DNA of 64,000 nt, taken from assembly GCA_002400365.1 (NCBI GenBank), contig DHFK01000087.1, positions 9,635 through 73,634 of the forward strand, read 5' to 3'. This stretch comes from Anaerolineales bacterium UBA4826. Its GTDB lineage: Bacteria; Chloroflexota; Anaerolineae; UBA4142. Positions 2,439 to 56,012 of this stretch are shown piece by piece (position 1 is the first letter of the stretch; every line of letters begins with the position of its first letter). The translations under genes and the position numbers were made by a program. The notes under the pieces were generated by a model. It had not been told where the DNA came from. It did not search any database and saw nothing but the letters and a program-made list of their open reading frames with translations.

Positions 2439-2540
2439 TTGGAGATTGGAGATTGGAGATCGGAAGTTGGAGGTTAGAGGTTGGAAGTTGGACGGATGAT
2501 CCCAGTCCTCCAACATCTAACGTCCAACCGCTAACTTCTA
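2439..2540. repeat. tandem-heptamer hairpin (TTGGAGA/TTGGAAG units x8, with an inverted partial array)
   Basis: Eight consecutive 7-mers at 2439-2494 (TTGGAGA x3, TCGGAAG, TTGGAGG, TTAGAGG, TTGGAAG, TTGGACG). Complementary CTCCAAC/ATCTAAC/GTCCAAC/CGCTAAC units follow at 2508-2540. It fills the gap-pgk intergenic space. Confidence 0.85.
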
Positions 2541-2548
2541 GGTGAACC

Positions 2549-3718
2549 ATGAACAAGAAAACCATTCGCGACATCAACGTCAAAGACAAACGCGCGCTCG
2601 TCCGCGTGGACTTTAACGTGCCGCTGGAAAAGGGCCAAGTCGCCGACGACACGCGCCTCGTCGCGTCGCTGCCGACGATCCGGTACCTGGTCGCGCAGGG
2701 CGCGAAAGTGATCTTGTGCTCGCACCTCGGTCGCCCCAAGGGCAAGGACCAGAAACTGTCGCTGCGCCCGGTCGCGGCGCGGTTGCAGGACTTGCTCGGC
2801 AAGCCGGTCACCTTCGTGGGCGACTGCATCGGGCAGCCGGTCGAGCGCGTGGTGGAAGCGCTGAACGCGGGCGATGTGCTGCTGCTGGAGAACGTGCGCT
2901 TTTACCCCGAAGAAGAAAAGAACGATCCAGAGTTTGCCCGGCGACTGGCGGCGTTCGGCGATGTGTACGTGAACGATGCGTTCGGCTCCGCGCATCGCGC
3001 GCACGCCAGCACCGAGGGAGTGACGAAATATCTGCCCGGCGTCGCGGGCTTGCTAATGGAAAAGGAATTGAACTATCTCGGCAGCGCGCTCGCGCAGCCG
3101 GCAAAACCCTTCGTCGCGATCCTCGGCGGCGCAAAGGTGAGCGACAAGATCAAGGTGATCGAAAATCTCTTGCCGCAAGTTGATTCGCTGTTGATTGGGG
3201 GCGGCATGGCGAACACGTTCCTCGCCGCGCGCGGCTTGAACCTGGGGCAGTCGCTCGTCGAAGCGGACAAACTTGGTGTGGCAAAAGCGCTGATGGACAA
3301 GGGCGGCGCGAAGATCGTGCTGCCAGTCGACGCGGTGATCGCGGACAAGTTCGCGGCGGACGCGCAGAACAAGATCGTTCCGGTCGGCCAGGTGCCGGCA
3401 GACTGGCGCGTGCTCGACGTCGGTCCCCAGACGATCGCTGCGTTCTCGGAAATCTTAGGGGGCGCCAAGACAGTCGTGTGGAATGGACCGCTCGGCGTAT
3501 GCGAGTTCCCCGCGTTCGCGCAAGGCACCGTTGAGATCGCCAAGCGGCTGGCGCAGTCTGGCGCGACGACGATCATCGGCGGCGGCGACAGCGCGGCGGC
3601 GGTCGAGCAAGCCGGCGTCGCGGGCAAGCTGACGCACATCTCGACCGGCGGCGGCGCGTCGCTCGAGTTTCTGGAAGGGCGCGTGCTGCCGGGGGTGGCG
3701 GCGCTGCAGGACAAATAG
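2549..3718 (+). CDS. pgk: phosphoglycerate kinase
   Basis: 389 aa. N-terminal RVDFNVP motif, C-terminal [13 protein letters not shown] motif, and the usual gap-pgk synteny. Confidence 0.97.
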
Positions 3719-3789
3719 CAGGTGCTCGTACTATCGCCCGCGGGTCCGAGAACCAAAGAGCGGCGCGCTGACGCCACGGAAGACGCAAA

Positions 3790-5080: not shown

Positions 5081-6784
5081 TTACTTCTCCCCCACCACAA
5101 TCAACGACATCGCGTTCGGCGGCATTGCAAATGAAACGCGCGCCGCGCCGTTCTCGATCGCGCTGGCGCTGACTTGAGGCGCCAGTTTCGCTTTCGCCGC
5201 GATCTCCGCGACCTGCGCGCTCGTCGGTGATTTGGGACTGCCGAGCGCGAGCCACGCGCGGTACGCGTTCGCGTGCTCACGGTCAATCCGATAGTGCTTT
5301 AGCGGTACACTGGTCCCAGTAATTCCCTTGACCGTCAACTCGACCCCGACCGGATCACCGGTTCCTGCCGGGTTCTTTTCCTCGAACCGGTAAACAACCA
5401 TCTGTGCTGATCCACCGCGCCGCGCGGCAAAGCCGCGCACGTCTGCGCCCGGCTGCGCGATGTCAACGGCGATGCGTTCCGATCCCAGTTTGCCGAGCAA
5501 CCAGTATGCGTTGAAGATGGGCAGCGGAATGACCTGATCGCCGTAGAGCCGCGTGTGGGCGCGCCAGCCGTTCACCATTTGTCCCCAGCGTAAGAACAAG
5601 TCCACGCGCGCGTCCGCGTTGTTCAAGTTGTTGTCAATCGAACGGCAGAGGAACGCGGCATCGTATTCGCCCAAGACCGTCGGCGATTGTCCGGCGTCGC
5701 TCTGATTCAGTGTTTGTCCCCACTCGTTCTGGTGCAATTCGACTTGCGCCAGCGCGGGGTAACTGCGGACGCGCGCGCGGCGTTTCTTGTTATGCTCCAA
5801 TAATCCCTGGCTCGCGCCGTAGCCGTGCCACGAGATGAAATCAGCGCGCGTGCCGCGCGTGCCGGTCACCGCGTTCGTGCCACTCGTGATGTGATCGAGG
5901 AAGAGCCGGAAAAAGTCGTCGTGTCCGGCAAGCCCAGGTCCCCCCACTCTGATTTGCGAATCTGCCGCCGTCGCGCCATCCACAAAGTAATCGTACATCT
6001 TGTTGAACCGCGCGATGCGTTCGGACGTGAATTTCTGCGGACCTTCCGCGCCGTCAATGAAATAGGCGCGCAAATCCGGCTCGTTCCAGATTTCAAAGTA
6101 CCAGGTCCGCACCTCGTCCGCGCCATAGCGTTCGCCGAGATGCTTCACCGTGTGGTAAATCATCTCGCGCCATTTGGAGTAATCGCGCGGCGTGTTGATC
6201 GCGCCGCCGGAATAGTTGCGGACAAGCGTGCCCTCCGCGAGCGCGTCCGGCATAAAGTCCATTTCGAGGATCGGTTTCAAGCCGGCGCGCTGCCAGATGT
6301 CCAGAACTTGATCGAGATACTCAAAGTTGTAACGCGGCGCGCCGCTCGCATCTTCGGCATAGACGCGGCAGCCGTAGATTTGATCTGGACGCGCGCGCGG
6401 CGCCGCATCGCTGAATGTATTGTGACAGCGGATGTAGCGAAACGCGCGGCTCGCGCGCATCATCTCCCAGACCGGCTGTGTGACGGGCGAGGTCGTGTGC
6501 GCGAACATCGGATCGAAGCCGACGTTGCCCCACAGTTTCGCGTCGCACGCGCCGACGACGCGGCTGATATCTGCGCTCAAGCGCGCGGCGAGGGGCGGCG
6601 ACGTAGGAGACGCCGTTGGAGATGGAGGGACAGAAGTTGGCGGTTGGAAGTTGGAAGTTGGACTGGGCGTTGGCGCAGCGGTGGGAATGTCGGCGGCTCG
6701 GCATCCTCCAAGCATCCAAGCGGCGGCGAGTGATGCCGCGCCGATCCCGACTTGCTTTATGAATTCGCGGCGGGTTGTTCGCAT
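5081..6784 (-). CDS. clan GH-A glycoside hydrolase (GH39-like) with Tat/lipoprotein-type signal
   Basis: WYFEIWNEPD catalytic-acid motif. N-terminus MRTTRREFIKQVGIGAASLAAAWMLGGC. GGAGG sits 5 nt upstream of the ATG at 6784. The ORF-track start at 6820 is probably too long. Confidence 0.75.
   Translation of the reverse strand: MRTTRREFIKQVGIGAASLAAAWMLGGCRAADIPTAAPTPSPTSNFQPPTSVPPSPTASPTSPPLAARLSADISRVVGACDAKLWGNVGFDPMFAHTTSPVTQPVWEMMRASRAFRYIRCHNTFSDAAPRARPDQIYGCRVYAEDASGAPRYNFEYLDQVLDIWQRAGLKPILEMDFMPDALAEGTLVRNYSGGAINTPRDYSKWREMIYHTVKHLGERYGADEVRTWYFEIWNEPDLRAYFIDGAEGPQKFTSERIARFNKMYDYFVDGATAADSQIRVGGPGLAGHDDFFRLFLDHITSGTNAVTGTRGTRADFISWHGYGASQGLLEHNKKRRARVRSYPALAQVELHQNEWGQTLNQSDAGQSPTVLGEYDAAFLCRSIDNNLNNADARVDLFLRWGQMVNGWRAHTRLYGDQVIPLPIFNAYWLLGKLGSERIAVDIAQPGADVRGFAARRGGSAQMVVYRFEEKNPAGTGDPVGVELTVKGITGTSVPLKHYRIDREHANAYRAWLALGSPKSPTSAQVAEIAAKAKLAPQVSASAIENGAARVSFAMPPNAMSLIVVGEK
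6615..6675. repeat. GTTGGAA-type heptamer run inside the GH39-like CDS (encodes a P/T/S linker)
   Basis: GTTGGAG..GTTGGCG GTTGGAA GTTGGAA GTTGGAC. It uses the same unit as the 2439-2494 array. On the minus strand it reads PTSNFQPPTSVPPSPT, just after the lipobox. Confidence 0.7.
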
Positions 6785-7680: not shown

Positions 7681-9129
7681 TCAGCGCACCGGCAGATGAA
7701 TGGTGAACACGCTGCCGTGCCCCGGTTCGCTCTTCACCGTGATCGCGCCGCCGTGCGCGGCGACGATTTCTTTGGCAATGGCTAGCCCCAAGCCGGTGCC
7801 GCCGGCGACGCGCGCTTTATCGCCGCGATAAAACCGCGCAAAGAGGCGCGGCAAGTCGTCCGCGGGAATGCCTTCGCCCGTGTCGGCGACGGCGATCCGA
7901 ATCCATCGCTGCGTCGGGGTCTTGCCTGCCGACCACCGCGCGAGCAAAGTGCTTTTGCCAGCGCTTTCTAGCGCTTCGGCTTTGGCGGTCACGGTGACTG
8001 TTCCGCCCGGGCGATTGTACTTGATCGCGTTTTCGACCAGGTTGGTCACGACTTGTTCCAATTGGCCGGCGTCGCCGGTGATTGGAGGGAGGGCGTCAAC
8101 CATGGCGACGATCGTCGCAGCCGGGATGTTCGCGCGCGCGCGGCAACGCTCGATCCAGCGCGGCAAGAGTTCGCCCAAGTCAACCCGGTCCTGCGCGAGC
8201 GCGATTTGCCCGGATTCCAGCCGCGCGAGCGTGAGCAAATTGCCAACCAAGCGCGCCATCCGCCCGGCTTCGTCGAAGATCGTTTGCGCGGCGCGGCGCG
8301 CCCCCGCCAGGTCATAGGTCGTCCCGTCGAGAATCGCCTGCGAAAAGCCCTGGATCGAAGTGAGCGGCGTTTTCAATTCGTGCGAGACGTTCGCGACGAA
8401 ATCTTTTTCCATCTGCCGCGCGCGCTGCATCTGCTCCGCCATCGCGTTGAAACTCGCGCCCAGCCGTCCGATTTCATCGCGCCCCCGGGCGTCGACGCGA
8501 TGAGCGTACTCTCCGCGCGCCAGCGCTTCGGTTGCCTGCGTCAAGCGCGTGATCGGTCGGGCAATCGAGCGCGCCAGCCAGAGCGCGGCGAGCAGCGAGA
8601 CCACTAACGTGATCGCGCCGGCGAGCAAGAGACTCGCGCCGATGTCGTCGAGCACGGCGAAGAAGGGCTGTTCTTTTGCCGCCAAACCCACGTACACCTG
8701 CTGCCCGCCGACCTGGCCTGCCAGCACGGCGACGTACAGCAGCGTGCGATTGAGGTTGCGTTGTGGATGAACGCCCCAGATGAATCCGCGGGGAGTGCCC
8801 GGCTTGTTCAGTGGCGTGAAAGAGATGTTGCGATTGGTCAAGCCATTTGCCGCGTCCGCCAGCACCAGCCCTTTGTCGGTCACGATGATGAGATCGCCGA
8901 CGCCGGTAGTTTGCTGCTGGAGCCGCGTCATCACCTCGCGCGGCGGAACGTTGTTGAGGAGCAGCGCGCGCGCCTGGAACGCCAACGGCACGACGGCATC
9001 CCCCAGGCGCGCGAGTTGGACATCGCGCTGGTACGCGCGCAGAATCACTGCCAGACTCACCGCGACGATCGCGAGCGTGAGCAGGATGACAAAGACGAAG
9101 GTTAGGGCAAGGCGCGTTCTAAGAGACAT
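7681..9129 (-). CDS. sensor histidine kinase (2 TM, HAMP, HisKA, HATPase_c)
   Basis: 482 aa. H-box SHELKTPLTSIQGF. N/G boxes (NAIKYN, DTGEGI, GGTGLGLAIAK). Two hydrophobic segments flank a periplasmic region of about 150 aa. Confidence 0.92.
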   Translation of the reverse strand: MSLRTRLALTFVFVILLTLAIVAVSLAVILRAYQRDVQLARLGDAVVPLAFQARALLLNNVPPREVMTRLQQQTTGVGDLIIVTDKGLVLADAANGLTNRNISFTPLNKPGTPRGFIWGVHPQRNLNRTLLYVAVLAGQVGGQQVYVGLAAKEQPFFAVLDDIGASLLLAGAITLVVSLLAALWLARSIARPITRLTQATEALARGEYAHRVDARGRDEIGRLGASFNAMAEQMQRARQMEKDFVANVSHELKTPLTSIQGFSQAILDGTTYDLAGARRAAQTIFDEAGRMARLVGNLLTLARLESGQIALAQDRVDLGELLPRWIERCRARANIPAATIVAMVDALPPITGDAGQLEQVVTNLVENAIKYNRPGGTVTVTAKAEALESAGKSTLLARWSAGKTPTQRWIRIAVADTGEGIPADDLPRLFARFYRGDKARVAGGTGLGLAIAKEIVAAHGGAITVKSEPGHGSVFTIHLPVR

Positions 9130-9134
9130 CCGAC

Positions 9135-9215
9135 TTTCGATTGCCGATCCTTCGGCAAGCGCAGGACAGGTTTTTCGATTTTCGATTGGGGCGCGCCAGA
9201 AATCGGCAATCGAAA
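9135..9215. repeat. TTTCGAT-unit repeat/hairpin between the kinase and regulator genes
   Basis: TTTCGATTGCCGAT (9135-9148) is the perfect reverse complement of ATCGGCAATCGAAA (9202-9215). An internal TTTTCGATTTTCGATT tandem lies at 9172-9187. Confidence 0.8.
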
Positions 9216-9231
9216 ATCGAACATCGAGAAT

Positions 9232-10807: not shown

Positions 10808-10808
10808 G

Positions 10809-10837
10809 ACCTTCCGGGTTTCCAAAACCTGGAAGGT
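10809..10837 (+). terminator. hairpin terminator candidate (ACCTTCCGGGTTT / AAACCTGGAAGGT)
   Basis: 13-bp imperfect inverted repeat immediately after the CPBP stop, followed by a T-rich tract. Confidence 0.45.
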
Positions 10838-10979: not shown

Positions 10980-10991
10980 ACAGCGAAGGCA

Positions 10992-11068
10992 GAAGGATGA
11001 AGGATGAAGGATGACAAACAGCGCGCTGCGATCAGTTTTCATCCTTCATCCCTCATCCCTCATCCTTT
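10992..11068. repeat. tandem-heptamer hairpin (GAAGGAT x3 / ATCCYTC x4)
   Basis: GAAGGAT x3 at 10992-11012. Complementary ATCCTTC, ATCCCTC, ATCCCTC and ATCCTTT units at 11041-11068. It lies between tRNA-Leu and tig. Confidence 0.9.
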
Positions 11069-11101
11069 TGATCCATAGTCCAAGAGAGGGAAACTAACCA
11101 C

Positions 11102-12565
11102 GTGAAAGTTACCACGGAACGCACCCCGAATTGCAACGCCGTCGTCACCGTCGAGGTGGACGACGACCAAGTCCAACGCGCGTTAAAGAACGCGGCAGTG
11201 CGCGTCTCGCGCATCCGCCCGATCCCCGGCTTTCGCCCCGGCAAGGCGCCGTACGCACGCGTCGAACGCGCGGTAGGCAAGGACCTCTTGCTCGACGAAG
11301 CGATTGACGAACTGGCGCAATCGCTCTACAAGCAAGTTCTGAAAGACGCAAACATCGAACCCTACGACGCCGGCAGCGTCGAGGTCGTGCAAAAGCAGCC
11401 GGTCATCTTAAAGTTCACGGTCCCCACGCGCCCGGTCGTCACGCTGGGCGACTATCGCTCCATCTACATTCAGCCCGAGCCGGTCGAAGTGAGCGCTGCG
11501 GAGGTGAATCAGGTCATCGAGCGCTGGCGCACGGAGCAAGCCACACTCGTGCCAGTCACGCGACCTGTGCAGCTGGGCGATCGCATTACCATCAATGTCA
11601 AAGGTGGGATCGAAAACCAGACGCAGATAGACCGCGAGAGCATGGAAGTGCAGATGGAGCCGGAGAAATTGCTCTTTCCCTGGTTGGAGCAACTCGTCGG
11701 CGCGAACGCCAACACGCCGCTCTCGATTACCTACACCTACCCAGCGGATGCGGCGGCGCCGGTCGCCGGCAAGACGGCGACGTACGCCGTGACCGTCACG
11801 GAAATCAAAGAGACCCAGTTGCCGGAACTCGACGACGCGTTCGCCCAGTCCATCAGCGCGTTCGAAACGCTCGACCAGTTGAAAAGGCGCGTCCGCGCGA
11901 ATCTGCTGGCGGAAAAGCAAGACGCGGAAAACAATCGCTATGCCGACCAGGTGGTGGACGCCGTGGTGGCGCAAGCGCAGATCGAGTACCCCGATTCCAT
12001 GATCGAAGACGAGCTCAACGTCGAGGTCGAGCAATCGAAAGACCTTGCCAAGCGGCTGAGTCTGACCTGGCAAAAGTACCTGGAATTGGCAAAGCAGGAC
12101 GAGAGCACGTATCGTGAAGCCAGCCGCCCGCGCGCGGAAAAGCGGCTCAAGCGCTTGCTGGCGCTGATGCAGGTCGCCGAAGCGGAAAAACTCGCGGTCA
12201 CCGCCAAGGACGTGGACGTGGAAATTGATCTGCGCGCGCAGCAAGACGCGCGCGCCGGCGGGAGCGCGGAGCAAACGCGCCGCGCGCTGGCGACGTCCGA
12301 TTCCCGGCGCGACATCGAGTTTACGCTCAGACTGCGCAAGGCGATCGCCTTTTTGGTCGCTTCCGCCAAGGGCGAGCCGACGAGCGGAAAGATCGTGACG
12401 CCAGACATGGTGCTCGCCGAACGCCGCGCCCGCGCGCAAGCCGCCGCGGCGGCAACCGCCGAGACCGGCGTATCGCCCAGCGGCTTGATCACCGATCCGT
12501 CTCAAGTGCGCGCGGAGGATTGGCCCCGCGGGCTGGACCATCCGCTGCTGCCAGGACAAGAGTAA
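11102..12565 (+). CDS. tig: trigger factor
   Basis: 487 aa. The N-terminal ribosome-binding region carries GFRPGKAP, the signature trigger-factor motif. Usual tig-clpP-clpX synteny. GTG start. Confidence 0.93.
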   Translation: MKVTTERTPNCNAVVTVEVDDDQVQRALKNAAVRVSRIRPIPGFRPGKAPYARVERAVGKDLLLDEAIDELAQSLYKQVLKDANIEPYDAGSVEVVQKQPVILKFTVPTRPVVTLGDYRSIYIQPEPVEVSAAEVNQVIERWRTEQATLVPVTRPVQLGDRITINVKGGIENQTQIDRESMEVQMEPEKLLFPWLEQLVGANANTPLSITYTYPADAAAPVAGKTATYAVTVTEIKETQLPELDDAFAQSISAFETLDQLKRRVRANLLAEKQDAENNRYADQVVDAVVAQAQIEYPDSMIEDELNVEVEQSKDLAKRLSLTWQKYLELAKQDESTYREASRPRAEKRLKRLLALMQVAEAEKLAVTAKDVDVEIDLRAQQDARAGGSAEQTRRALATSDSRRDIEFTLRLRKAIAFLVASAKGEPTSGKIVTPDMVLAERRARAQAAAAATAETGVSPSGLITDPSQVRAEDWPRGLDHPLLPGQE

Positions 12566-12644
12566 TTTCAGATTTCAGATTTATGCTTTAAGATTTGGCG
12601 CGCCCTCAAGTGGACGTGGAAATCATAAATCTGAAATCTGAAAT
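12565..12644. repeat. tandem-octamer hairpin (ATTTCAGATTTCAGATTTATG and its perfect complement)
   Basis: Perfect 21-bp inverted repeat, 12565-12585 versus 12624-12644, each arm made of TTCAGATT-type units. It lies between tig and clpP. Confidence 0.9.
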
Positions 12645-12663
12645 TTAGCAGGAGTCTCAAAGA

Positions 12664-19878: not shown

Positions 19879-20036
19879 TGCGGCGAGATGATAACACAGA
19901 GTACGGAGAATCGCAAAAGTGAATGGTTTGTTGTATAATCACAGGAGAAATTCGATTCTGGAACAGCGACGCGCGGCACAACCTTGAAGCGGTGTTGGCG
20001 ACGATTTCAGAGAGGTTGCCAGACCGCGCGGAGAAA

Positions 20037-20156
20037 CGTCTTGACAATGTTGGATTAGCCACAGAGCGCACAGAGGACGCAGAGAAAAATCTGTTCTTTC
20101 CTCTGTGTTCTCTGTGTCCTCTGTGGCGGAAAGGAAAATGTAACATTGTCAAGACG
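20037..20156. repeat. 120-nt compound hairpin: 15-bp outer stem plus CACAGAG-unit inner arms
   Basis: CGTCTTGACAATGTT (20037-20051) is the perfect complement of AACATTGTCAAGACG (20142-20156). The inner arms are CCACAGAG CGCACAGAG GACGCAGAG versus CTCTGTGTT CTCTGTGTC CTCTGTGG. Confidence 0.9.
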
Positions 20157-20191
20157 TGAAAACCCTATGTCGTGACATCGAGGAGGATGTT

Positions 20192-24585: not shown

Positions 24586-24602
24586 TTTCCTTCTCTTCTT
24601 CT

Positions 24603-24637
24603 CTCTCATCTCTCATCTCTCATCTTTCATCTCTTCA
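24603..24637. repeat. CTCTCAT heptamer run upstream of fabF
   Basis: CTCTCAT x3, CTTTCAT, CTCTTCA. This is the complement of the GAAAGAT/GAGAGAT unit family. It sits directly upstream of the fabF SD. Confidence 0.8.
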
Positions 24638-25909: not shown

Positions 25910-25940
25910 CCCTGACAAGGTGACGGGGTGACACGGTGAC

Positions 25941-26717: not shown

Positions 26718-26800
26718 TCGCGTAGTCGCATGGTCAGATAGTCAAACCGACTACGACTATACGACGACTCGACTATCCGACTAAAGACTATGCGACTATT
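26713..26800. repeat. TAGTCG-unit hairpin spanning the rnc stop and the next gene's start codon
   Basis: Left arm AATAGTCGCGTAGTCGCATGGTCAGATAGTC (26713-26743). Right arm GACTACGACTATACGACGACTCGACTATCCGACTAAAGACTATGCGACTATT (26749-26800). The ATG at 26790 is inside the right arm. Confidence 0.8.
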
Positions 26801-30407: not shown

Positions 30408-30466
30408 CGAATAGACGAATAGTTCCCGCCCATTCGTTCATTCGTTTATTCGTTGGTGATTCGTTG
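30394..30466. repeat. ACGAATAG-unit hairpin overlapping the smc stop
   Basis: CAACGAATGGGTAACGAATAGACGAATAG (30394-30422) versus CATTCGTTCATTCGTTTATTCGTTGGTGATTCGTTG (30431-30466). Confidence 0.8.
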
Positions 30467-30483
30467 AGGTAGTTTTCCAACCA

Positions 30484-34925: not shown

Positions 34926-34939
34926 CATTGACGATGGCT

Positions 34940-34999
34940 GATTTTCGATTTTCGATTGACCCCAACAGGAAATCGAAAATCAGAAATCGAAAACCGAAA
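34940..34999. repeat. TTTCGAT-unit hairpin
   Basis: GATTTTCGATTTTCGATT (34940-34957) versus AATCGAAAATCAGAAATCGAAAACCGAAAA (34971-35000). Same unit family as 9135-9215. Confidence 0.85.
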
Positions 35000-36112: not shown

Positions 36113-36182
36113 AGAACAGAGGAGACAGGAAAGATGAAAGATGAAAGATGAAAAACGACCCTCTCCTCTTTCATCTTTCTTC
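36111..36182. repeat. GAAAGAT-unit hairpin between convergent genes
   Basis: GGAAAGATGAAAGATGAAAGATGAAAA (36128-36154) versus CTCTCCTCTTTCATCTTTCTTC (36161-36182). A 13-nt perfect pairing is possible. Confidence 0.8.
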
Positions 36183-40812: not shown

Positions 40813-40841
40813 AGTATACAACAGAACAGATAAAACGTAAA
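40813..40841 (-). promoter_or_regulatory. promoter candidate TTTACG-17-TATACT, 6 nt from the ATG (leaderless)
   Basis: Minus strand: TTTACG (40841-40836), 17-nt spacer, TATACT (40818-40813), CCAGCC, then the ATG at 40806. The -35 hexamer is part of the ACGTAAA repeat. Confidence 0.45.
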
Positions 40842-40906
40842 ACGTAAAGATGCCATTACGTTCTGCGCGTTACGTTTTACGTTTTACGCTTTACGCTTTA
40901 CGTTTT
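40831..40906. repeat. ACGTAAA-unit hairpin in a divergent promoter region
   Basis: TAAAACGTAAAACGTAAAG (40831-40849) versus TTACGTTTTACGTTTTACGCTTTACGCTTTACGTTTT (40870-40906). Confidence 0.9.
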
Positions 40907-40925
40907 GCGCCCCGCGTGCTACAAT
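40897..40925 (+). promoter_or_regulatory. promoter candidate TTTACG-17-TACAAT, 6 nt from the folK ATG (leaderless)
   Basis: TTTACG 40897-40902, 17-nt spacer, TACAAT 40920-40925, GTCCCC, then the ATG at 40932. Confidence 0.45.
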
Positions 40926-42438: not shown

Positions 42439-43254
42439 TTACCCGTTCGGCGGCAGCAGGACGATGTGCGGCGCATGCGCGCGCGTGGGATGGTCGGCGA
42501 CCAGAACATCCGTGCCGAAAACGCCCTGCACGCGTTCTTTCGACAACACCGCGCGCGGCGTCCCCTCGGTGATGATGCGCCCATCGCTCAGCAGCATCAA
42601 ACGATCAAAGTAAAGCGCCGCCAGGTTCAAATCGTGCATCGTCGCCAGCACCGTCAGCCCGCGCTCGCGATTCAGTTTGCGGATGAGTTCCAGCACCTCG
42701 ATCTGGTGATTGATGTCGAGATGCACCGTCGGCTCGTCGAGGAGCAGAACGGCGGGCTTGAGCCCTGGATCGAGCAGCACTTGCGCCAACGCCATGGCGA
42801 CCATCACACGCTGCCGCTCGCCGCCCGACAATTCGCCGAACACGCGCGCTGCGAGCGCGCGCGTCTCCGTCAACGCGAGCGCGCGGTCAATCGCGGCGCG
42901 GTCGCGCGCCGATTCGCCGAACAACGGGCGGATGTGCGGCGTGCGCCCCAACAAGACCATTTCCCGCACGGTAAACGCGAACGGCACGTTCACTTCTTGC
43001 GGCACGAGCGCGATCCGCCGCGCAATTGCGCGGCGCGAGAACGCGGCGAGGTTGTCGCCGTCCAGCGCCACGTGCCCCGCGCGCGGGGACAAAATCCCAT
43101 TCAGAATCTTGAGCAGCGTCGTCTTGCCCGAGCCATTGGGACCCAGCAGCGCGACCAGTCCGCCGCGTTCGAGCGCGAGGTCAACGCCGCGCAAGACCAT
43201 GCGACCGTTGTAGGCGAATTCGATCTGGTGAGCGGAAAGCAAAGGATCAGACAT
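42439..43254 (-). CDS. btuD: ABC importer ATP-binding protein (BtuD/FecE type)
   Basis: Walker A GPNGSGKTT, signature LSGGERQR, Walker B LLLDEPT. It sits in an operon behind a cobalamin riboswitch. Confidence 0.85.
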   Translation of the reverse strand: MSDPLLSAHQIEFAYNGRMVLRGVDLALERGGLVALLGPNGSGKTTLLKILNGILSPRAGHVALDGDNLAAFSRRAIARRIALVPQEVNVPFAFTVREMVLLGRTPHIRPLFGESARDRAAIDRALALTETRALAARVFGELSGGERQRVMVAMALAQVLLDPGLKPAVLLLDEPTVHLDINHQIEVLELIRKLNRERGLTVLATMHDLNLAALYFDRLMLLSDGRIITEGTPRAVLSKERVQGVFGTDVLVADHPTRAHAPHIVLLPPNG

Positions 43255-43260
43255 CGTACT

Positions 43261-43326
43261 CTTTACGTTTTACGTTTTAGACGAGGTAAAGCGTAAATCG
43301 TAAAACGTAAATCGCAAAACGTAAAA
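43261..43326. repeat. ACGTAAA-unit hairpin within the btu-like operon
   Basis: CTTTACGTTTTACGTTTTA (43261-43279) versus TAAAGCGTAAATCGTAAAACGTAAATCGCAAAACGTAAAA (43287-43326). Confidence 0.85.
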
Positions 43327-44358
43327 TCAGAATGTGTATTCCCGTTTCGTGCGTCTCAGCAGATAGATAAAGAACGGCGCGCCGACGAGCGCGGTCACCA
43401 CGCCGAGCGGCAACTCGGACGGCGCAAGGACAAGGCGCGCGATCAGATCTGCCAGCACGAGAAAAATCGCGCCGCTCAGGAATGAAGCCGGCAACAGCAG
43501 GCGATGATCGGGCCCCAGCACCAAGCGGACGACGTGCGGCACGATCAAGCCGACGAACCCGACCAAGCCGCTGATCGCGACGGCTGCGCCGGTGAGCAAC
43601 GCGCCAATCGTCAGCGCCAGGAATTTTTGCCGCTCGACCGCGACGCCGAGCGCGGCGGCTTGTTCTTCGCCGAGCAGGAACGCGTTGAGATCATTCGCCA
43701 GCGCGAACGCCGCGAGCGCGCCGACGACAACCAGCGGCGTCACGACCTTGAGCGCGTCCCAGCCGCTGGCGCTGACGCCGCCCATGGTCCACAGCACGAC
43801 GCGTTGGAGCGTATTCTGGTTCATCAGCATCAGGAATGACATGACCGACGCCATCATCGAACTCGTCGCAAAGCCCGCGAGCAACAGCGTCGTGATCGGC
43901 GTGCGCGGACCGACGCGCGCGATCTGATAGACGAGCAGCACTGCGCCCAGCGCACCCATGAACGCGGCAATCGGCACGAGCGTGAACGCAAAGACGCCGA
44001 ACGACGCGGGGACGAGCAAGGCGATCGTCGCCGCGAGCGCCGCGCCGCCCGACGTGCCGAGCAAATACGGATCGGCGATCGGATTGCGGAGCAGTCCTTG
44101 GAACAACACGCCCGCGCTGGCGAGCGCGGCGCCGACGATTGCCGCGCCGCAAACACGCGGCAGGCGCAACTGCCACACGATGGTTTCCTGCGTCTCGCTC
44201 CACGCCGCGCCAATGGACACGCCCAGCGCGCGCTTGAGCGCGATCGCGGCGATGTCGCCCAGCGGAATCGCGACGGTGCCAAGCGACGCCGCTACTCCAA
44301 GCGCGAGGAGCAGCGCGAGCGCTAGCAGCGTGAGAGCGAGAATGGGTTGGCGGCGCAT
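43327..44358 (-). CDS. btuC: FecCD/BtuC-family ABC importer permease
   Basis: 343 aa, about 10 TM segments, with typical FecCD blocks (LGTSGGAALAAT, PLGVVTALVGAPFFIYLL). Confidence 0.88.
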   Translation of the reverse strand: MRRQPILALTLLALALLLALGVAASLGTVAIPLGDIAAIALKRALGVSIGAAWSETQETIVWQLRLPRVCGAAIVGAALASAGVLFQGLLRNPIADPYLLGTSGGAALAATIALLVPASFGVFAFTLVPIAAFMGALGAVLLVYQIARVGPRTPITTLLLAGFATSSMMASVMSFLMLMNQNTLQRVVLWTMGGVSASGWDALKVVTPLVVVGALAAFALANDLNAFLLGEEQAAALGVAVERQKFLALTIGALLTGAAVAISGLVGFVGLIVPHVVRLVLGPDHRLLLPASFLSGAIFLVLADLIARLVLAPSELPLGVVTALVGAPFFIYLLRRTKREYTF

Positions 44359-45682: not shown

Positions 45683-45865
45683 TGACAGAGACAGGTTTTC
45701 TGGCTTGCTAGCAGATAACGTATGGCAGATGGCAGATGGCTATTGAGGTTTTTGCCATAAGCCATTTGCTCTTTGCTATCTGCTAGTCCACAGTTGCGGG
45801 ACAGCGTCGGCTTGACCGAACTTGCCCTGTTTGGCTCTCCCTTTCGGAAAGAGTCACCTCTGTCA
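45683..45865 (-). promoter_or_regulatory. cobalamin riboswitch aptamer
   Basis: The minus strand contains GGTGAC..TTCCGAAAGGGAG..AACAGGGCAAG..GGTCAAGCC..GCTGTCCCGCAACTGTGG, then the B12 box AAGCCAGAAAACCTGTC. P1 pairs TGACAGAG (45865-45858) with CTCTGTCA (45690-45683). It is upstream of btuFCD-like genes. Confidence 0.85.
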
Positions 45866-51791: not shown

Positions 51792-53145
51792 TCCACTTGA
51801 AACCGAAAAATGGAAAACGATTCACGTCGCGCGTCATTTGCAACGGCGGCAGCCAATCCTGCCACGGCGCTTGCGCGCCTTGCAGCGACGAGTACGCCGA
51901 AAGCGCAAGCAGCGGCGCGAACAAGATCCAGCCGACATGCTTCCAGGTGCTTGCGTTCAGCGGCGGCGCATCAAAGATGAACGCGCACAAGGTGGGAATT
52001 GCCGGGATGAACCAACGCTCGCCATAGCCCGTGCCGCCATAGTTGCCTGTTTGCGTCGCCAGGTAGACACTCAACACGATAAAGCCCAACGCCGTAGAAA
52101 TTCCTTCGATCCAAAGTGGGTGTTTGCGCTTCAATCCTACTCCGATCGCGCCGACCAGCGCGAACAACAACAGCGGATTGTAGGCGAACAGCCCTTTGCC
52201 GCCGAGGAACATGCGGAACGCGTACGCCGCGTAATCGTCCGGCGTACCGTTTCCGCCGAACGTCGCGGGAAACGCCGAGCCGGGATAATTATAGCCGTTC
52301 GTAAGCATGTACGGCGGCAGGATCGTCTGCGCGATTTGATAATCGAGCAGCGCGGTCACGAGCATTGGAATCGCCGCGCCGATCAAAAAGAATCCCCAGC
52401 GCCAGCGCTGCCGCGCCAGCGCAATCCCGGCGATACTCGCGGCGACAATACCCGCCAGCACATCGAACGAAACCGCCAGGGCGGCTAGGAATCCTGCGGC
52501 AACGAGGAGTCCGTCGGAGAAACCCGTTTTCTGCGCTTTTTCGATGCATGTCCCGCCTGATGAGGAAGAAAACGGGTTTCTGAAACTGTGCACACTCGCG
52601 TCGCGCGTCGTCAATATATAGAAACTCGCAAAGAGACTTGCCGCCGCCGGAACATGATGGTTGAAAACAAGCGCGAACGGAAACAGCAGCGTGCCCAGCC
52701 CCAACGCCAGTATCCCGATCGCCGCAATCCACACCGGCACCGCGCGGCGCAGCGCGTGATCGAAAAAGAGCCAGAGCATCAGCGCAGCGGGAACGGCAAC
52801 CAGAATCAAAGTGAGCCAGGGGTACGCGCACCTCTGGCAATCAGGCGCGAGCGACGCGCCGAAGCCAAAACGCAAAATCGCGTACACCCCCGCGCCGATC
52901 AGGGTCAGCGCCGGCATTTTGTCGGAATAGAACTTGCCGCCGATCAGGACCTTGTCCTTGGTCGCGTCCACCCAGAGCGAATGGTCAATGGACCACGTCC
53001 CACGTTCCGCCAACGATTCGATCGCGGCGACGCGCGCGATGTCGTTCCACGACTCTGGCTTGCTCTTGATCAGCGTGAGCGCCCCGCCGAGAAACAAAAG
53101 CGCGATTCCCGCGCCGATTACCCTTCGCCATTTGCGATTCGCCAT
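51775..53145 (-). CDS. GT-C-like polytopic membrane protein (putative glycosyltransferase) with palindromic-element insert
   Basis: 456 aa. The DKVLIGGKFYSDKMPALTLIG loop resembles the first periplasmic loop of ArnT/PMT-like enzymes. The start at 53145 lies inside a heptamer array and overlaps polA by 28 nt, so it is uncertain. Confidence 0.5.
   Translation of the reverse strand: MANRKWRRVIGAGIALLFLGGALTLIKSKPESWNDIARVAAIESLAERGTWSIDHSLWVDATKDKVLIGGKFYSDKMPALTLIGAGVYAILRFGFGASLAPDCQRCAYPWLTLILVAVPAALMLWLFFDHALRRAVPVWIAAIGILALGLGTLLFPFALVFNHHVPAAASLFASFYILTTRDASVHSFRNPFSSSSGGTCIEKAQKTGFSDGLLVAAGFLAALAVSFDVLAGIVAASIAGIALARQRWRWGFFLIGAAIPMLVTALLDYQIAQTILPPYMLTNGYNYPGSAFPATFGGNGTPDDYAAYAFRMFLGGKGLFAYNPLLLFALVGAIGVGLKRKHPLWIEGISTALGFIVLSVYLATQTGNYGGTGYGERWFIPAIPTLCAFIFDAPPLNASTWKHVGWILFAPLLALSAYSSLQGAQAPWQDWLPPLQMTRDVNRFPFFGFKWNVRFP
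52518..52581. repeat. GAAACCCGTTTTC palindromic element, copy C (inside a CDS, reading frame maintained)
   Basis: AGAAACCCGTTTTC (52518-52531) and GAAAACGGGTTTCT (52568-52581). On the minus strand it reads FRNPFSSSSGGTCIEKAQKTGFS. Confidence 0.9.
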
Positions 53146-55940
53146 TCGCTATTCGCCATCGCGTCCCAATTCTGCCCGACCGCGACATCCACCTTCAACT
53201 TTGATTCCAGCGCGTACGCGTTCTCCATGATCTCGCGCACGAGCGGCGCAACAACGCGTACCTCGTCGTCGGGACATTCGAGCACGAGTTCGTCATGCAC
53301 CTGGAGCGTCATCCGACTTTTCAAATTGCGCGCGTGCAGTTCGCGCTGCAACCGAATCATCGCCAGTTTAATAATGTCCGCCGCGCTGCCCTGAATCGGA
53401 TGGTTGATCGCTTCGCGCTCCGCCGCGTTCTTCAGCGCGGGGTTGACGCTGCCCTTGCCGCGCAGTTCGGGAAAATAACGCCGCCGCCCCAGGAGCGTCT
53501 GCACGTAGCCATGCTCGCGCGCCTCGCGCTTGGTGCTTTCGATGTACGCCTTGACCCGCGCGAACTGGGTAAAGTAATTGTCAATCAGTTGCCGCGCCTC
53601 GGCTTGCGACAACTCGGTGCGCGCGGCGACACCGTAATCGGTGATGCCGTAGGCGATGCCAAAGTTGATCGTCTTGCCCAACTGCCGCATGGACGCCGTG
53701 ACCTGCTCACGCGGGACGTTGAACAAGCGCGCGGCGGTCGCCGCGTGAATGTCCTCCCCGCGCGCGAACGCGTCGAGCAAACCCGGGTCGTGCGTGATGT
53801 GCGCGAGGATGCGCAGTTCGACCTGGGAATAATCCGCGCTGATGAGTTTGCTGCCGCGCGGCGCGATGAACGCGCGGCGCACCTGCCGCCCCAGGTCGGT
53901 GCGGATCGGAATGTTCTGCAAATTGGGGTTCGACGATGAGACGCGTCCTGTGATCGCGCCGGTCTGGTTGTAATCGGTGTGCACCCGCCCGGTGCGCGGC
54001 AACACCAGCGCGGGCAGCGCGTCCACATACGTCCCTTTGAGTTTCGACAACTCGCGGTGCTCGAGAATCAACGGGATGATCGGATGCGCGGCGCGCAGTG
54101 ACTCCAACACCTCGGCGGCGGTCGAAATCTGACCGGTTTTCGTCTTGGGTAACCCAGTCGTCGGCAGTTTCAGCCGCTTGTACAGCGCATCGCCCAATTG
54201 CTGCGGCGACGCGATGTTGATCGGCATTCCAACGTGCGTGGTGATTTGCTTTTCCAACTCTTGCAGCCGCGCGGCAAGTTCGTCCGACATCCGCGCCAAA
54301 AAGTCGAGATCGAGCAACACGCCGGCGCGTTCCATCTCCAGCAGCACCGGCACGAGCGGCATCTCGACCTCGTTGAACAATTTGTCGAGTCCGTGTTCCG
54401 CCAGTTGCGGCTGGTAGAGTTCGACGAGGCGATAAGTGTAATCGGCGTCCGCGCACGCGTAACGCGACACTTTTGCAGGATCCACCTCCGCCATCGAAAT
54501 CTGGTTCTTGCCCTTGCCGATCAGCGCCTCGATCTCCGTCATCTCGACGCCGAACTTTTGAAAGACCAAACTCTTCAAGCCGATGGATTGTCTCCCCGGC
54601 TCGATCAAATGCGCGGCGATCATCGAGTCGAACGCAAGTCCGCGCAGTTCGACGCCGGCTTCGGCAAGCACCGTCGCGTCATATTTCGCGTTGTGCGCGT
54701 ACTTGATAATGCGCGCATCTTCGAAGATCGGTTTCAGTTTGGCGAGAACGTGATCGCGCTTAAAAGATGAAGGGTGAAAGATGAAAGATGAAGGTACTGT
54801 ATCAAAGGCAAGTTGCCCTTGTTTCCCAACTTCATCTTTCAACTTTCTGCTTTCATCCTTCACGGGAACATAATACGCCTCGCCATTCCCCACGCCGATC
54901 GCCAACCCCACCAACTCCGCGCGCATCGCGTCGGTGTCGGTGGTCTCGACGTCAACGACAAACGCCTTTGCCGATTGCAGACGCGCGACCAATTGGTCGA
55001 GCGCGGCTTCCGTATCAACCGTGTGATAATTCTCGGCGATGGCTTGCGGCTTGGCGGCAACCGAGTCCGGCGGCGCCGGCTTGACGCCGGGCAGTCGTTC
55101 GATCAAACTGCGAAAGCCGAGTTCACGAAAGAGCGCGACGACGCGTTCGCGGTCGTACTCTTCGACGCGGCACGCGGCGAGATCGAGTTTCACCGGCGCG
55201 TCGGTCACGATCGTGACGAGTTGCTTGCCTTGCTCTGCCTGCGCTTGTCCCGCGCGCAATTTTTCTTGCCAGCGTTTTTCGATTTCCTCGAGGTGCGCGT
55301 AGATGTCTTCGACGCTGCCGTACGTCTGCACGAGTTTCGTCGCGGTCTTTTCGCCGATACCGGGGACGCCGGGGATGTTGTCGGACACATCGCCTTTGAG
55401 CGCCTTGAAATCAATCAGTTGGCGCGGCTCGAGTTGGTAGCGCTGCTTGACCGCCGCTTCGTCGTACACAACGAATCCGCCCCCCGACTGCGGCGAGAAC
55501 ATCAGCACGCGCACGTGCGGCCCGATCAGTTGCAGCGTGTCAGTGTCGCCGGTGACGATGAGCGTTTCGATGCCGCGTTCGCTTGCCTGCCGCGCGAGCG
55601 TGCCGAGCAGATCGTCCGCTTCGTACCCTTCCAGCCCGAACGCCGGAATGCCCAACGTCTCCACGACCTGGCGCGAGCGCTGCAACTGCGTCAACAAATC
55701 ATCGCCGAGTTCAGGGCGCGTGGCTTTGTATTCCGCGTACAGCGCGTCGCGAAAACTCTTGCCCACGTCGAACGCGGCGGCGATGTACTCGGGCTTTTCG
55801 TCGCTCAGGACTTTGAGAACCGTCGAGGTAAAGCCGTACGTCGCGTTGGTCGGTTCGCCGCTCGGGCTGGTGAGGTTGGTTTGGATCGCGTGGTACGCGC
55901 GGTGGATCAGTGCGTGCGAATCAAGGAGAACAAGTTTCAT
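53118..55940 (-). CDS. polA: DNA polymerase I
   Basis: 940 aa. 5-prime nuclease domain, 3-prime-5-prime exo-like domain (DVETT, KYAHNAKYD) and polymerase motifs A (DYSQVELR), B (RRAAKTINFGIAYG-like QLGKTINFGIAYG) and C (QVHDEL). Confidence 0.97.
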   Translation of the reverse strand: MKLVLLDSHALIHRAYHAIQTNLTSPSGEPTNATYGFTSTVLKVLSDEKPEYIAAAFDVGKSFRDALYAEYKATRPELGDDLLTQLQRSRQVVETLGIPAFGLEGYEADDLLGTLARQASERGIETLIVTGDTDTLQLIGPHVRVLMFSPQSGGGFVVYDEAAVKQRYQLEPRQLIDFKALKGDVSDNIPGVPGIGEKTATKLVQTYGSVEDIYAHLEEIEKRWQEKLRAGQAQAEQGKQLVTIVTDAPVKLDLAACRVEEYDRERVVALFRELGFRSLIERLPGVKPAPPDSVAAKPQAIAENYHTVDTEAALDQLVARLQSAKAFVVDVETTDTDAMRAELVGLAIGVGNGEAYYVPVKDESRKLKDEVGKQGQLAFDTVPSSFIFHPSSFKRDHVLAKLKPIFEDARIIKYAHNAKYDATVLAEAGVELRGLAFDSMIAAHLIEPGRQSIGLKSLVFQKFGVEMTEIEALIGKGKNQISMAEVDPAKVSRYACADADYTYRLVELYQPQLAEHGLDKLFNEVEMPLVPVLLEMERAGVLLDLDFLARMSDELAARLQELEKQITTHVGMPINIASPQQLGDALYKRLKLPTTGLPKTKTGQISTAAEVLESLRAAHPIIPLILEHRELSKLKGTYVDALPALVLPRTGRVHTDYNQTGAITGRVSSSNPNLQNIPIRTDLGRQVRRAFIAPRGSKLISADYSQVELRILAHITHDPGLLDAFARGEDIHAATAARLFNVPREQVTASMRQLGKTINFGIAYGITDYGVAARTELSQAEARQLIDNYFTQFARVKAYIESTKREAREHGYVQTLLGRRRYFPELRGKGSVNPALKNAAEREAINHPIQGSAADIIKLAMIRLQRELHARNLKSRMTLQVHDELVLECPDDEVRVVAPLVREIMENAYALESKLKVDVAVGQNWDAMANSEWRIANGEG
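53124..53158. repeat. five tandem TTCGCCA-type heptamers at the polA end and the next gene's start
   Basis: TTCGCCA TTTGCGA TTCGCCA TTCGCTA TTCGCCA. On the minus strand it encodes the polA tail MANSEWRIANGEG and contains the ATG at 53145. Confidence 0.85.
54762..54863. repeat. GAAAGAT-unit hairpin inserted in frame in polA
   Basis: AAAAGATGAAGGGTGAAAGATGAAAGATGAAGG (54762-54794) versus CCAACTTCATCTTTCAACTTTCTGCTTTCATCCTTCAC (54826-54863). 17 of 18 bases pair in the core. On the minus strand it reads VKDESRKLKDEVGKQGQLAFDTVPSSFIFHPSSFK. Confidence 0.88.
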
Positions 55941-55949
55941 AAGTCACTG

Positions 55950-56012
55950 CGCCAATCGCCCAATGAACCAATGAGCCAAACGAGCCATTCGTCAAATTGC
56001 TTTGGCTCATTG
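55950..56012. repeat. CCAATGAG-unit repeat/hairpin upstream of polA
   Basis: CCAATCG CCCAATGAA CCAATGAG CCAAACGAG units. CAATGAGCCAAA (55969-55980) is the perfect complement of TTTGGCTCATTG (56001-56012). Confidence 0.85.

Follow-up and report, generated by a model that had tools for sequence, protein, structure and literature searches.

How do hairpins built from tandem units of 7 or 8 nt come to lie between the genes of a bacterium, and what might they do there? We addressed this question in a 64,000-nt stretch of DNA from Anaerolineales bacterium UBA4826 (contig DHFK01000087.1, assembly GCA_002400365.1; hereafter, the window). An earlier note on this DNA had described a common architecture in which a short unit repeated in tandem is followed by a spacer and then by tandem copies of the reverse-complement unit, and Tandem Repeats Finder (TRF), an inverted-repeat finder, and RNAfold recovered this architecture at 12 of the 16 loci that it listed. 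Our preferred interpretation, to which we assign a probability of about 60%, is that the elements are tandem repeats of 7 (sometimes 8) nt resembling the STRR (short tandemly repeated repetitive) sequences of cyanobacteria, grown by slippage and transcribed as intercistronic RNA stem-loops.

TRF reported dozens of short arrays in the window, most of them with a period of 7. Perfect period-7 arrays, defined as at least two units plus 2 nt, numbered 19 against 0.58 expected, with a maximum of 4 in 200 dinucleotide-preserving shuffles, and the enrichment over shuffled sequence proposed in the earlier note as a check was thus found in the window; counts of perfect arrays with periods of 8 to 12 were near expectation. 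A reverse-complement partner array within 130 nt (two reverse-complement units with at most 3 mismatches in 14 to 16 nt) accompanied 14 of the 20 perfect period-7/8 arrays, or 70%, compared to a chance rate of 4.3% derived from random windows of the same sequence. The predicted stems comprise 23 to 41 pairs. Relative to dinucleotide shuffles, the z-scores of the 14 hairpins ranged from -2.4 to -10.9, and 10 of the 14 were unmatched by any of 200 shuffles. Intergenic DNA showed autocorrelation peaks at lags 7 and 14; coding DNA lacked the peak and displayed the usual period of 3. About 14 to 16 of the 20 perfect arrays lie in non-coding DNA, which makes up ~12% of the window, and array density was 2.97 per 10 kb versus 0.27 per 10 kb at distant tig loci, an ~11-fold difference. 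The claim that almost every intergenic gap carries such a hairpin was nevertheless overstated, since hairpins occupy ~14 of the 39 gaps of at least 30 nt, about one third, and 11 of the 24 gaps of 50 to 130 nt. The heptamer arrays are nonrandom, mostly paired, and lineage-wide, and the feature is real and statistically overwhelming.

Neither an artefact nor a peculiarity of one contig accounts for these counts, although both had been named in the earlier note as ways in which the observation could fail. At least six assemblies, made independently and from several samples, contain the same species (Joint Genome Institute [JGI] 3300014686, 3300038308, and 3300030373; GCA_002412505.1 and GCA_002380735.1; SRR1563167) at DNA identities of 99.1 to 99.97%, and because the same sequences and hairpins are found in these assemblies, we rejected an assembly or synthetic artefact. 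For comparison, we used loci numbered with an L: L086 to L089, L097, and L098 are from the same species, L001, L002, L004, and L006 to L014 cover the tig region of other species, and L091 to L096 cover the polA region. In the closest other species, trigger factor is ~68% and PolA ~81% identical. Arrays and hairpins occur in the relatives L006, L010, L096, L092, L094, and L037, and confinement to one contig was rejected as well; their density among relatives is patchy, from 0 to 5 per 10 kb.

With all rotations and both strands counted together as one unit class, the array loci of the window number 15 and draw on 13 classes. The earlier statement that the unit differs between loci is correct to that extent; however, an identical class is found at both members of six pairs of separate loci, where 0.13 pairs would be expected for random heptamers of the same composition, and the repertoire is shared between species. 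Among period-7 arrays of other species, 9 of 33 use a class also found in the window, and in L037, where trigger factor is only 36% identical, ACGTAAA-type units again build a hairpin. Many classes are one or two substitutions apart (e.g., AAAGATG, AAGGATG, AGGGATG, and AGAGATG). Thus, the units are not locus specific but belong to a small repertoire that recurs across loci and related species. Loci with common units differ in loop, arm length, and flanks and are therefore not copies of one mobile element. The same puzzle of shared units has been stated for other heptamer-repeat systems (PMC4679880). Informally, some half of the unit families fit a pattern of GAT followed by four bases (GATTGGA, GATTTTC, GATGAAG, GATGAAA, GATTTCA, and GATGGCA).

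The placement of the hairpins is tight. Eight lie in co-directional, one in convergent, and two in divergent gaps, in agreement with the range of settings reported earlier. In all eight co-directional gaps, the repeat element or stem starts between about -14 and +21 nt from the upstream stop codon, and the hairpins end at or just before the next ribosome-binding site. The array at 2438-2546 begins at the gap stop codon, and the hairpin at 12560-12650 runs from the tig stop codon to just ahead of the clpP ribosome-binding site. Four downstream genes have their start codon within the stem base or abutting it: the kinase gene (9129-9127, within the stem base of hairpin 9118-9231), the RmlD-like gene (ATG at 26790, inside the 3' arm of hairpin 26708-26804, which extends from the rnc stop codon to this start), the ABC ATPase gene (43254, adjoined by hairpin 43254-43327), and rnc, encoding RNase III (ATG at 25941, covered by hairpin 25913-25963). 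The coordinates of all arrays and hairpins are collected in Table 1.

Table 1. Tandem-unit arrays and hairpins in the window, in order of position; dG and z (relative to dinucleotide shuffles) are given for the folds.
Feature	Position	Strand	Units	Fold and remarks
Hairpin, gap (GAPDH)/pgk	2438..2546	+	TTGGAGA-type, ~8 units in 5' arm, 5 complementary units in 3' arm	dG -42.6, z -3.9
Direct array, 5' region of GH39 gene	6616..6663	.	TTGGAAG/TTGGAGA-type	without inverted partner
Hairpin filling response-regulator/histidine-kinase gap	9118..9231	-	TTTCGAT/GATTTTC	dG -48.7, z -5.5
Hairpin, tRNA-Leu/tig	10980..11075	+	GAAGGAT paired with TCATCC(C/T)	dG -42.6, z -6.4
Hairpin, tig/clpP	12560..12650	+	ATTTCAG	z -5.8
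Two in-frame direct arrays, TMEM260-like glycosyltransferase	18691..18804	-	GTTGGCTA x4, AAAACGT x3.4	~amino acids 358-396
Nested hairpin, divergent intergenic region	20036..20157	.	CACAGAG-core repeats, 9-11 nt spacing	dG -73.5, z -10.9
Direct array, AIR-synthase-like gene/fabF	24602..24634	+	TCTCTCA x4.7	no significant hairpin, z -0.3
Short hairpin at rnc start	25913..25963	+	GGTGAC(G/A)-type, period ~8, only 5' arm repeated	dG -23.5, z -2.6
Hairpin, rnc/RmlD-like gene	26708..26804	+	8-nt TAGTCGCN	z -5.4
Hairpin, smc/ABC ATPase	30390..30470	+	8-nt ACGAATAG	overlaps last smc codons; z -5.2
Hairpin, DHDPS-family gene/esterase gene	34928..35006	+	GATTTTC	z -6.5
Hairpin between convergent genes, esterase (+) and Proton_antipo_M (-)	36107..36192	.	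GAAAGAT	z -2.4
Direct array over glycogen-debranching stop codon	38829..38850	-	CCCGTCA x3.1	without partner arm
Hairpin, divergent region of debranching-enzyme/HPPK genes	40825..40912	.	ACGTAAA/TTTACG(T/C)	z -3.6
Hairpin, FecCD permease/ABC ATPase, B12-transporter operon	43254..43327	-	ACGTAAA	z -3.1
Heptamer-built riboswitch stem	45707..45787	-	ATGGCAG paired with GCCATCT	z -5.9
PolA C-terminal tail array	53124..53163	-	TTCGCCA x5, encoding ANSEWRIANGEG	
In-frame polA hairpin	54763..54862	-	GAAAGAT-type	~amino acids 359-392, 3'-5' exonuclease domain; z -5.4
Hairpin, 128-aa gene/polA	55941..56017	-	8-nt CCAATGAG	z -3.5
In-frame direct arrays, molybdopterin oxidoreductase	59670..59720	-	ATTGGAG x2.4, TTGGCTCA x4.4	~amino acids 293-309

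Strong canonical terminators, with a G+C-rich stem and a U-tract, are located at operon ends (16989-17026, 7682-7644, 10807-10839, and 45601-45573). In a consensus scan of the window, no A/U-rich unit hairpin combined a G+C-rich stem with a U-tract, and canonical intrinsic terminators were rejected on this basis; inside the unit hairpins, the scan returned only weak sub-stems of 5 to 8 pairs (9147-9130 and 30437-30415). The earlier view that simple termination does not explain all of the sites is thus upheld.

Arrays turn over between species while the gaps that hold them remain. In the window, the hairpin of the tRNA-Leu/tig gap lies upstream of tig and directly 3' of tRNA-Leu (10892-10979). 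Of the nine sequences examined for this gap, window included, eight have a hairpin or array built from units; L001 has none. The units there are GAAGGCA/GAAGGAT in the window, L004, and L006, GAAAGAT-type in L002, and GATTTCA-type in L008 and L014; L010 has six copies of GATTTTG, and L011 has one copy of GATTTCA type. The orthologous hairpins of L004, L006, and L002 use related units, and L004 falls two GAAGGAT units short of the window, whose opposite arm is longer to match. Hairpins with other units follow tig in most species. The gap that separates polA from the 128-aa gene holds units of the CCAATGAG 8-mer family in the window, L091, and L093, and hairpins of other units in L094 and L095. 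At protein identities of 48 to 81%, three gaps (tRNA-Leu/tig, tig/clpP, and 128-aa gene/polA) keep hairpins or arrays while the unit changes.

Within the species, one array changes in copy number. The GCCATCT unit in the 3' arm of the riboswitch stem (Table 1) is present in three copies in the window, L087, and L089 and in two copies in L086 and L088, all >99% identical overall. This change is one of only three real indels in a same-species comparison of ~20 kb, the others being deletions of 13 nt and 1 nt; the remaining indels flank runs of N. Over ~32 kb of same-species comparison, no further change in array copy number was found, leaving GCCATCT as the sole event. Many hairpins have extra unpaired units that overhang one arm, as expected if the arms expand independently; the hairpin at 40825-40912, for example, has surplus unpaired units on its 3' side. 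Arrays gain and lose whole units and turn over in place, units are homogenised within a locus, and unit families are replaced over evolutionary time. The comparison of orthologous gaps suggested in the earlier note revealed replacement of unit sequence between species and one change of copy number within the species.

The clearest RNA context is a riboswitch. In a scan of the window at Rfam gathering thresholds, only the cobalamin riboswitch was matched (RF00174, 45876-45673 on the minus strand; 38.5 bits versus a threshold of 31.5), and no family was found for the unit hairpins themselves. According to the match to the Rfam model, the ATGGCAG/GCCATCT hairpin constitutes the long variable peripheral stem of the cobalamin aptamer. 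The riboswitch is followed by a canonical terminator-like hairpin with a U-tract (45601-45573) and by a btuF-like/FecCD/ABC-ATPase operon (~45571-42439). The orthologous riboswitch in L092 has a heptamer stem with another unit, AGTGGTA/CACTACC (z -5.3), and that in L095 has a short stem only. It is for the riboswitch stem, and for no other site, that being part of an RNA is supported, by the Rfam cobalamin model.

Arrays also occur inside genes. The in-frame polA hairpin encodes KDESRKLKDE in its 5' arm, GQLAFDT in its loop, and SSFIFHPSSF in its 3' arm, and it corresponds to an insertion of ~25 residues in a loop of the exonuclease domain compared to the E. coli Klenow fragment. All relatives down to ~57% identity have the insertion in their PolA protein, with a central G-Q-L-x-F in most and variable flanks. 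At the DNA level, the window has GATGAAA-type/TTTCATC units and L091 has GACGAAA-type/TTTCGTC units; that is, the same substitution occurs in nearly all units of one arm and is compensated in the other. The PolA tail ANSEWRIANGEG was not seen in PolA of relatives, and its stretch (53118-53163) overlaps the start region of the next gene (51775-53145). The array process acts wherever extra length is tolerated, namely, in intergenic spacers, in a length-variable riboswitch stem, and in surface loops of proteins. In three unrelated long genes, all on the minus strand (17041-19878, 53118-55940, and 57782-60598), an array is read through in frame ~290 to 400 residues in. The low-complexity peptides added by such read-through include FTFYVSRF, LANYPTNQLANK, and NEPMSQLPNEPNLQSPIANY.

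These observations can be assembled into a mechanism as follows. The driver would be replication slippage in a 7-nt register, and inverted pairs would prevail because arrays grow on hairpins that are already there. A change in one arm could reach the other through intrastrand template switching (quasi-palindrome correction), selection for pairing, or a combination of the two. The inverted pairs would then be transcribed and fold into imperfect RNA stem-loops of 25 to 40 bp that bridge the interval between the stop codon upstream and the ribosome-binding site downstream, most likely serving as intercistronic or 3' mRNA structures. Such stem-loops could block 3'-to-5' decay of the upstream cistron, or they could supply long double-stranded RNA for RNase III, whose gene, rnc, is present in the window (25941-26717). 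Where the stem base covers the next start codon, downstream translation would depend on a ribosome finishing the upstream gene: the terminating ribosome may melt the stem base and free the next start site, an arrangement amounting to translational coupling. The geometry from stop codon to ribosome-binding site fits both a role as stabiliser or RNase III substrate and translational coupling.

Several observations weigh against this interpretation. There is no hairpin in the orthologous tig/clpP gaps of L007 and L012, and the 128-aa gene/polA gap of L093 has direct copies only and no hairpin. In L096, the flanks of the polA insertion are the unrelated heptamer arrays CGCCGAC and TCATCCC, which form no hairpin, and the polA fold in L092 to L095 is no better than that of shuffles; pairing is therefore not always maintained, and the pattern is one of persistent arrays with homogenised units in which pairing is frequent but not obligatory. 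In a comparison of sense and antisense folds made to detect RNA-level selection, G·U pairs numbered 32 and 28, respectively, and the sense fold was the more stable in 9 of 12 hairpins (P = 0.15), giving no clear sign in either direction. Template switching between arms was not observed, and the sole polymorphism, GCCATCT, alters one arm only. The recurrence of the same few unit families at unrelated loci and across species is left unexplained by slippage of random local sequence. Finally, we infer the function of the hairpins from their position and predicted folding, and we count this against the interpretation too.

A substantial neutral component is plausible, and the strongest competing account goes further in holding that the arrays are entirely a mutational by-product: a peculiarity of replication or repair in this lineage would favor 7-nt slippage and palindromes, leaving harmless hairpins without function. 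We give this account a modest chance, well short of even. Rapid unit turnover, hairpins that are present or absent at orthologous gaps, copy-number polymorphism within the species, and patchy array density among relatives (0 to 5 per 10 kb) are all what it would predict; the same can be said of the tolerant places that arrays occupy (protein loops and a variable riboswitch stem), of the non-complementary polA arms of L096, and of the lack of detected strand asymmetry in G·U pairs. It is less easily reconciled with hairpins that outlast complete unit replacement at the same gaps, with polA arms that change together, with the tight placement between stop codon and ribosome-binding site, and with a limited shared repertoire, which pure local slippage does not predict.

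The shared repertoire also leads to a more speculative proposal, which we consider doubtful: an unrecognised active process may seed a few heptamer families at unrelated loci and write them onto both arms of hairpins, even within an essential gene such as polA. Such a process would account for the cross-species repertoire and the concerted change of arms, neither of which follows from local slippage alone. Hairpins could be extended and homogenised by a dedicated enzyme or through some peculiarity of polymerase or repair; alternatively, a sequence-specific RNA- or DNA-binding system could select the repertoire. The process is perhaps also at work in other lineages rich in heptamer repeats.

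A third possibility is that the units act at the level of DNA, as sites for a sequence-specific or nucleoid protein, and that the inversion reflects dimeric or looped binding rather than RNA structure. The small repertoire common to loci and species would suit binding sites, as would the arrays in the divergent promoter regions at 20036-20157 and 40825-40912 and the match of TTTACG units to -35-like hexamers on both strands, and the Geobacter arrays have been read in this way (PMC2700814). We nevertheless regard the idea as very unlikely. At least a dozen unit families are present in 64 kb, so that many proteins or very loose specificity would be needed; most sites lie between stop and start codons inside operons and not at promoters, one is the stem of a riboswitch RNA, and orthologous sites can show a complete exchange of the unit.

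Similar considerations apply to mobile miniature palindromes, in which a transposase-type enzyme would insert whole hairpins, as for repetitive extragenic palindromic (REP) sequences, REPINs, or miniature inverted-repeat transposable elements (MITE). Palindromic elements of Rickettsia provide a precedent for in-frame insertion of palindromes into genes, and this explanation would account for in-frame hairpins in coding sequences and for unit families common to unrelated loci and different species. Two pairs of loci are alike over 48 to 60 nt: the array at 6616-6663 is 81% identical over 48 nt to that at 2446-2493 (pair D1), and the hairpin at 34928-35006 is 75% identical over 60 nt to 9172-9231 (pair D10), with a different loop. 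Only the units recur, however, and given that 75 to 81% over 48 to 60 nt is the best similarity between loci, we rejected a REP/MITE family as the main explanation, which leaves mobility scarcely probable. Loci with common units are unlike in their loops, the length of their arms, and their flanks; neither conserved termini nor target-site duplications nor GTAG/CGTC heads were seen, and no domain of a transposase or of an IS200/IS605-type REP-associated tyrosine transposase (RAYT) was found among the genes of the window, which covers 64 kb of the genome. Moreover, copy number shifts by single units, and the polA insertion is ancient rather than recent, being orthologous across the clade with a conserved loop. 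That the hairpins are U-tract-less ("I-shaped") terminators or attenuators is hardly credible: long stable hairpins do stand immediately after stop codons and one lies between convergent genes (36107-36192), but many are inside evident operons (gap-pgk, tig-clpP-clpX, response regulator-kinase, and btuF-like/FecCD/ABC), two are in divergent regions, others are within coding sequences and the riboswitch aptamer, and canonical terminators serve the operon ends.

Inverted heptamer pairs have precedents, and the suggestion in the earlier note that such a version is unknown was wrong. In two Xanthomonas genomes, Rehm et al. 2015 described 70 to 75 convergent pairs of GGGAATC arrays per genome, on opposite strands, with stem-loop potential, and for the most part close behind stop codons (PMC4692102). 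These arrays are 89 to 93% intergenic, lie nearest the upstream open reading frame (ORF), at ~28 nt, and are found mostly between co-directional ORFs; their length and sequence differ between close relatives, and their position and their type, single or paired, are kept (PMC4692102). The window resembles Xanthomonas in having inverted heptamer pairs that can form stem-loops near the 3' end of the upstream ORF, mostly in co-directional gaps. However, Xanthomonas has one G-rich GGGNATC family with G-quadruplex potential, whereas the window has at least 13 unit classes, mostly A/T-rich, and none of its units (TTGGAGA, GATTTTC, GAAGGAT, ATTTCAG, ACGTAAA, ATGGCAG, etc.) has a GGG run in every unit. 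A higher share of the window arrays is in hairpin form, and the host belongs to another phylum.

The second precedent is Geobacter metallireducens, in which Aklujkar et al. 2009 found paired sites of tandem hepta- or octanucleotides on opposite strands (PMC2700814). The pairs consist of 3 to 5 tandem units of 7 to 9 nt at variable distance, fall into several unit classes, and are located between genes, including inside the proB-proA operon, with one family also within genes (PMC2700814). They were read, as a suggestion not put to the test, as binding sites for integration host factor (IHF)/HU or a global regulator, and they are absent from G. sulfurreducens (PMC2700814). In G. metallireducens, unlike the window, each class is a multicopy family of 8 to 24 pairs detectable by BLAST (PMC2700814). 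Paired opposite-strand arrays of several unit classes, between and within genes, are common to that genome and the window.

STRR sequences in the strict sense belong to heterocystous cyanobacteria, with ~40% G+C, in which several heptamer families are dispersed in intergenic DNA, are common to related genera, and vary in copy number. Their literature includes Mazel et al. in 1990, Jackman and Mulligan in 1995, and Vioque in 1997. The link to STRR drawn in the earlier note is apt: the window likewise has an excess of tandem 7-nt repeats, an intergenic bias, limited shared unit families, and copy-number change by whole units. Its host, unlike those of STRR in the strict sense, is a member of the Chloroflexota with 60% G+C. 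Intergenic regions of the Anabaena nif cluster reportedly vary in sequence yet keep stem-loop potential, and in the 1997 work of Vioque, STRR units are said to lengthen helix P12 of cyanobacterial RNase P RNA, to which the lengthened riboswitch stem described here offers a parallel. We know of no conserved in-frame polA hairpin in the context of cyanobacterial STRR. For the GGGGAYT family of Nostoc, "only a few paired repeats" were noted (PMC4692102).

Heptanucleotides also dominate a broader survey. As its results are represented in later papers, Mrazek et al. 2007 found heptanucleotides to be the most abundant class of long simple sequence repeats (SSRs) in many non-pathogen genomes, ascribed long SSRs to polymerase slippage over a segment of ~7 nt, and found units that are not multiples of three to be mostly non-coding (PMC4679880, PMC4692102). 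In the same representation, direct arrays are treated statistically, and hairpin pairing, orthologous turnover, and Chloroflexota lie outside the subject.

A possible mode of action is suggested by the intercistronic stem-loops of REP sequences and bacterial interspersed mosaic elements (BIME), which stabilise the upstream mRNA, as at malE-malF in E. coli. The window stem-loops likewise follow a cistron inside operons, and the resemblance is one of possible mode of action. REPs are families of conserved sequence mobilised by RAYT transposases; by contrast, only short units recur in the window, which is known from sequence alone. In Anabaena variabilis, stem-loops at the nifH processing site go with a longer half-life of the adjacent transcript (PMC4284476). 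A full-text literature search combining heptamer repeats with Chloroflexi, Chloroflexota, or Anaerolineae ranked nothing relevant at the top, although its incomplete coverage makes this weak evidence of novelty. Inverted heptamer arrays are already known from Xanthomonas and Geobacter and are apparently unreported in Chloroflexota. The novel points of the present analysis are the riboswitch stem, an in-frame polA hairpin that is found throughout the clade and whose arms change in concert, and the orthologous replacement of units.

The dominance of heptanucleotides among long simple repeats, the spread of units, and the function of arrays have been described by their authors as unexplained (PMC4679880, PMC4692102). 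With many unit families in one genome and hairpins that outlast their units at orthologous gaps, this lineage is a natural experiment from which unusually much can be learned, and the riboswitch stem provides an RNA context for a heptamer-built structure. The in-frame polA hairpin found across the clade, with arms that change together, and the live one-unit polymorphism are concrete loci for tests of slippage, of arm-to-arm correction, and of effects on mRNA. There are practical consequences as well. Because several long ORFs run through arrays, ORF calls can be inflated, and lineage-specific low-complexity peptides are added to conserved proteins. Arrays also break or collapse short-read assemblies, with N-gaps and one truncated hairpin seen at or near arrays. 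In L088, an N-gap deletes most of the riboswitch hairpin, which suggests that hairpins trouble short-read assembly. N-gaps with garbled flanks were observed at ~50725-50964 and ~18963-18974 of the window in L086, L089, and L097.

Inspection of individual sites revised several details of the earlier note and extended its list. The 12 confirmed loci are the hairpins of Table 1 other than those at 25913-25963, 45707-45787, and 54763-54862. At 24603-24637, a GAAGGAT hairpin had been reported; the site is a direct array of TCTCTCA with z = -0.3, and the wider candidate at 24505-24660, taken as a purine/pyrimidine hairpin, was dismissed as not significant at the same z of -0.3. Of the two GGTGACG sites, that at 38828-38856 does contain an array (38829-38850) but a direct one with no partner arm, and a fold test of 38780-38900 formed no hairpin; that at 25919-25960 has an array and a short hairpin (25913-25963), with units on one arm only. 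The array of unit TTCAGATT is real, but the unit is actually a 7-mer, and the CACAGAG repeat at 20037-20156 does form the repeat core of a hairpin, with a spacing of 9 to 11 nt. The loci absent from the earlier list, several of which proved to be the most informative, were the riboswitch hairpin (45707-45787), the polA arrays (54763-54862 and 53124-53163), and the arrays at 18691-18804, 59670-59720, and 6616-6663.

Three of these loci have further features. The outer arms of the nested hairpin in the first divergent region (20036-20056 and 20137-20157) form a unique 21-nt inverted repeat that is 90% complementary, with TTGACA on each strand. In the second (40813-40925), TTTACG(T) units form the -35-like hexamers of two promoter-like matches, one per strand (TTTACG-17-TACAAT and TTTACG-17-TATACT), maybe by chance. 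The rnc gene has a unit hairpin 3' of the gene in addition to that over its start. E. coli RNase III is autoregulated through a leader stem-loop, which the repeat hairpin over the rnc start recalls, as a resemblance only.

To judge from its genes, the window is ordinary chromosomal DNA of an uncultured lineage of Chloroflexota, the neighbours of which carry an Anaerolineae annotation. Its G+C content over the 64 kb is ~60%, and the nearest public proteins are annotated as coming from Chloroflexota/Anaerolineae metagenome-assembled genomes. The genes include cofD, gap, pgk, a histidine kinase with a response regulator, tRNA-Leu, tig-clpP-clpX, fabF, rnc, smc, a glycogen-debranching enzyme, folK, a B12-type ABC transporter, argS, polA, and a molybdopterin oxidoreductase. 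In the JGI 3300014686 contig (L097, 1-1992), similarity to the window is lost just upstream of tRNA-Leu (upstream of 10847 in the window), where L097 carries a 651-aa ORF instead, pointing to a rearrangement or insertion beside the tRNA gene or to a chimeric assembly. L087 is without 13 nt at ~48482 of the window, inside a 269-aa gene, and the called product is shortened to 218 aa. Finally, a 92-nt stretch at the 3' end of a MoaC-like gene (22116-22207) recurs 832 nt downstream (22948-23039) with 86% identity, apparently as a duplicated fragment of a gene, and is also present in the same-species loci L097 and L098.

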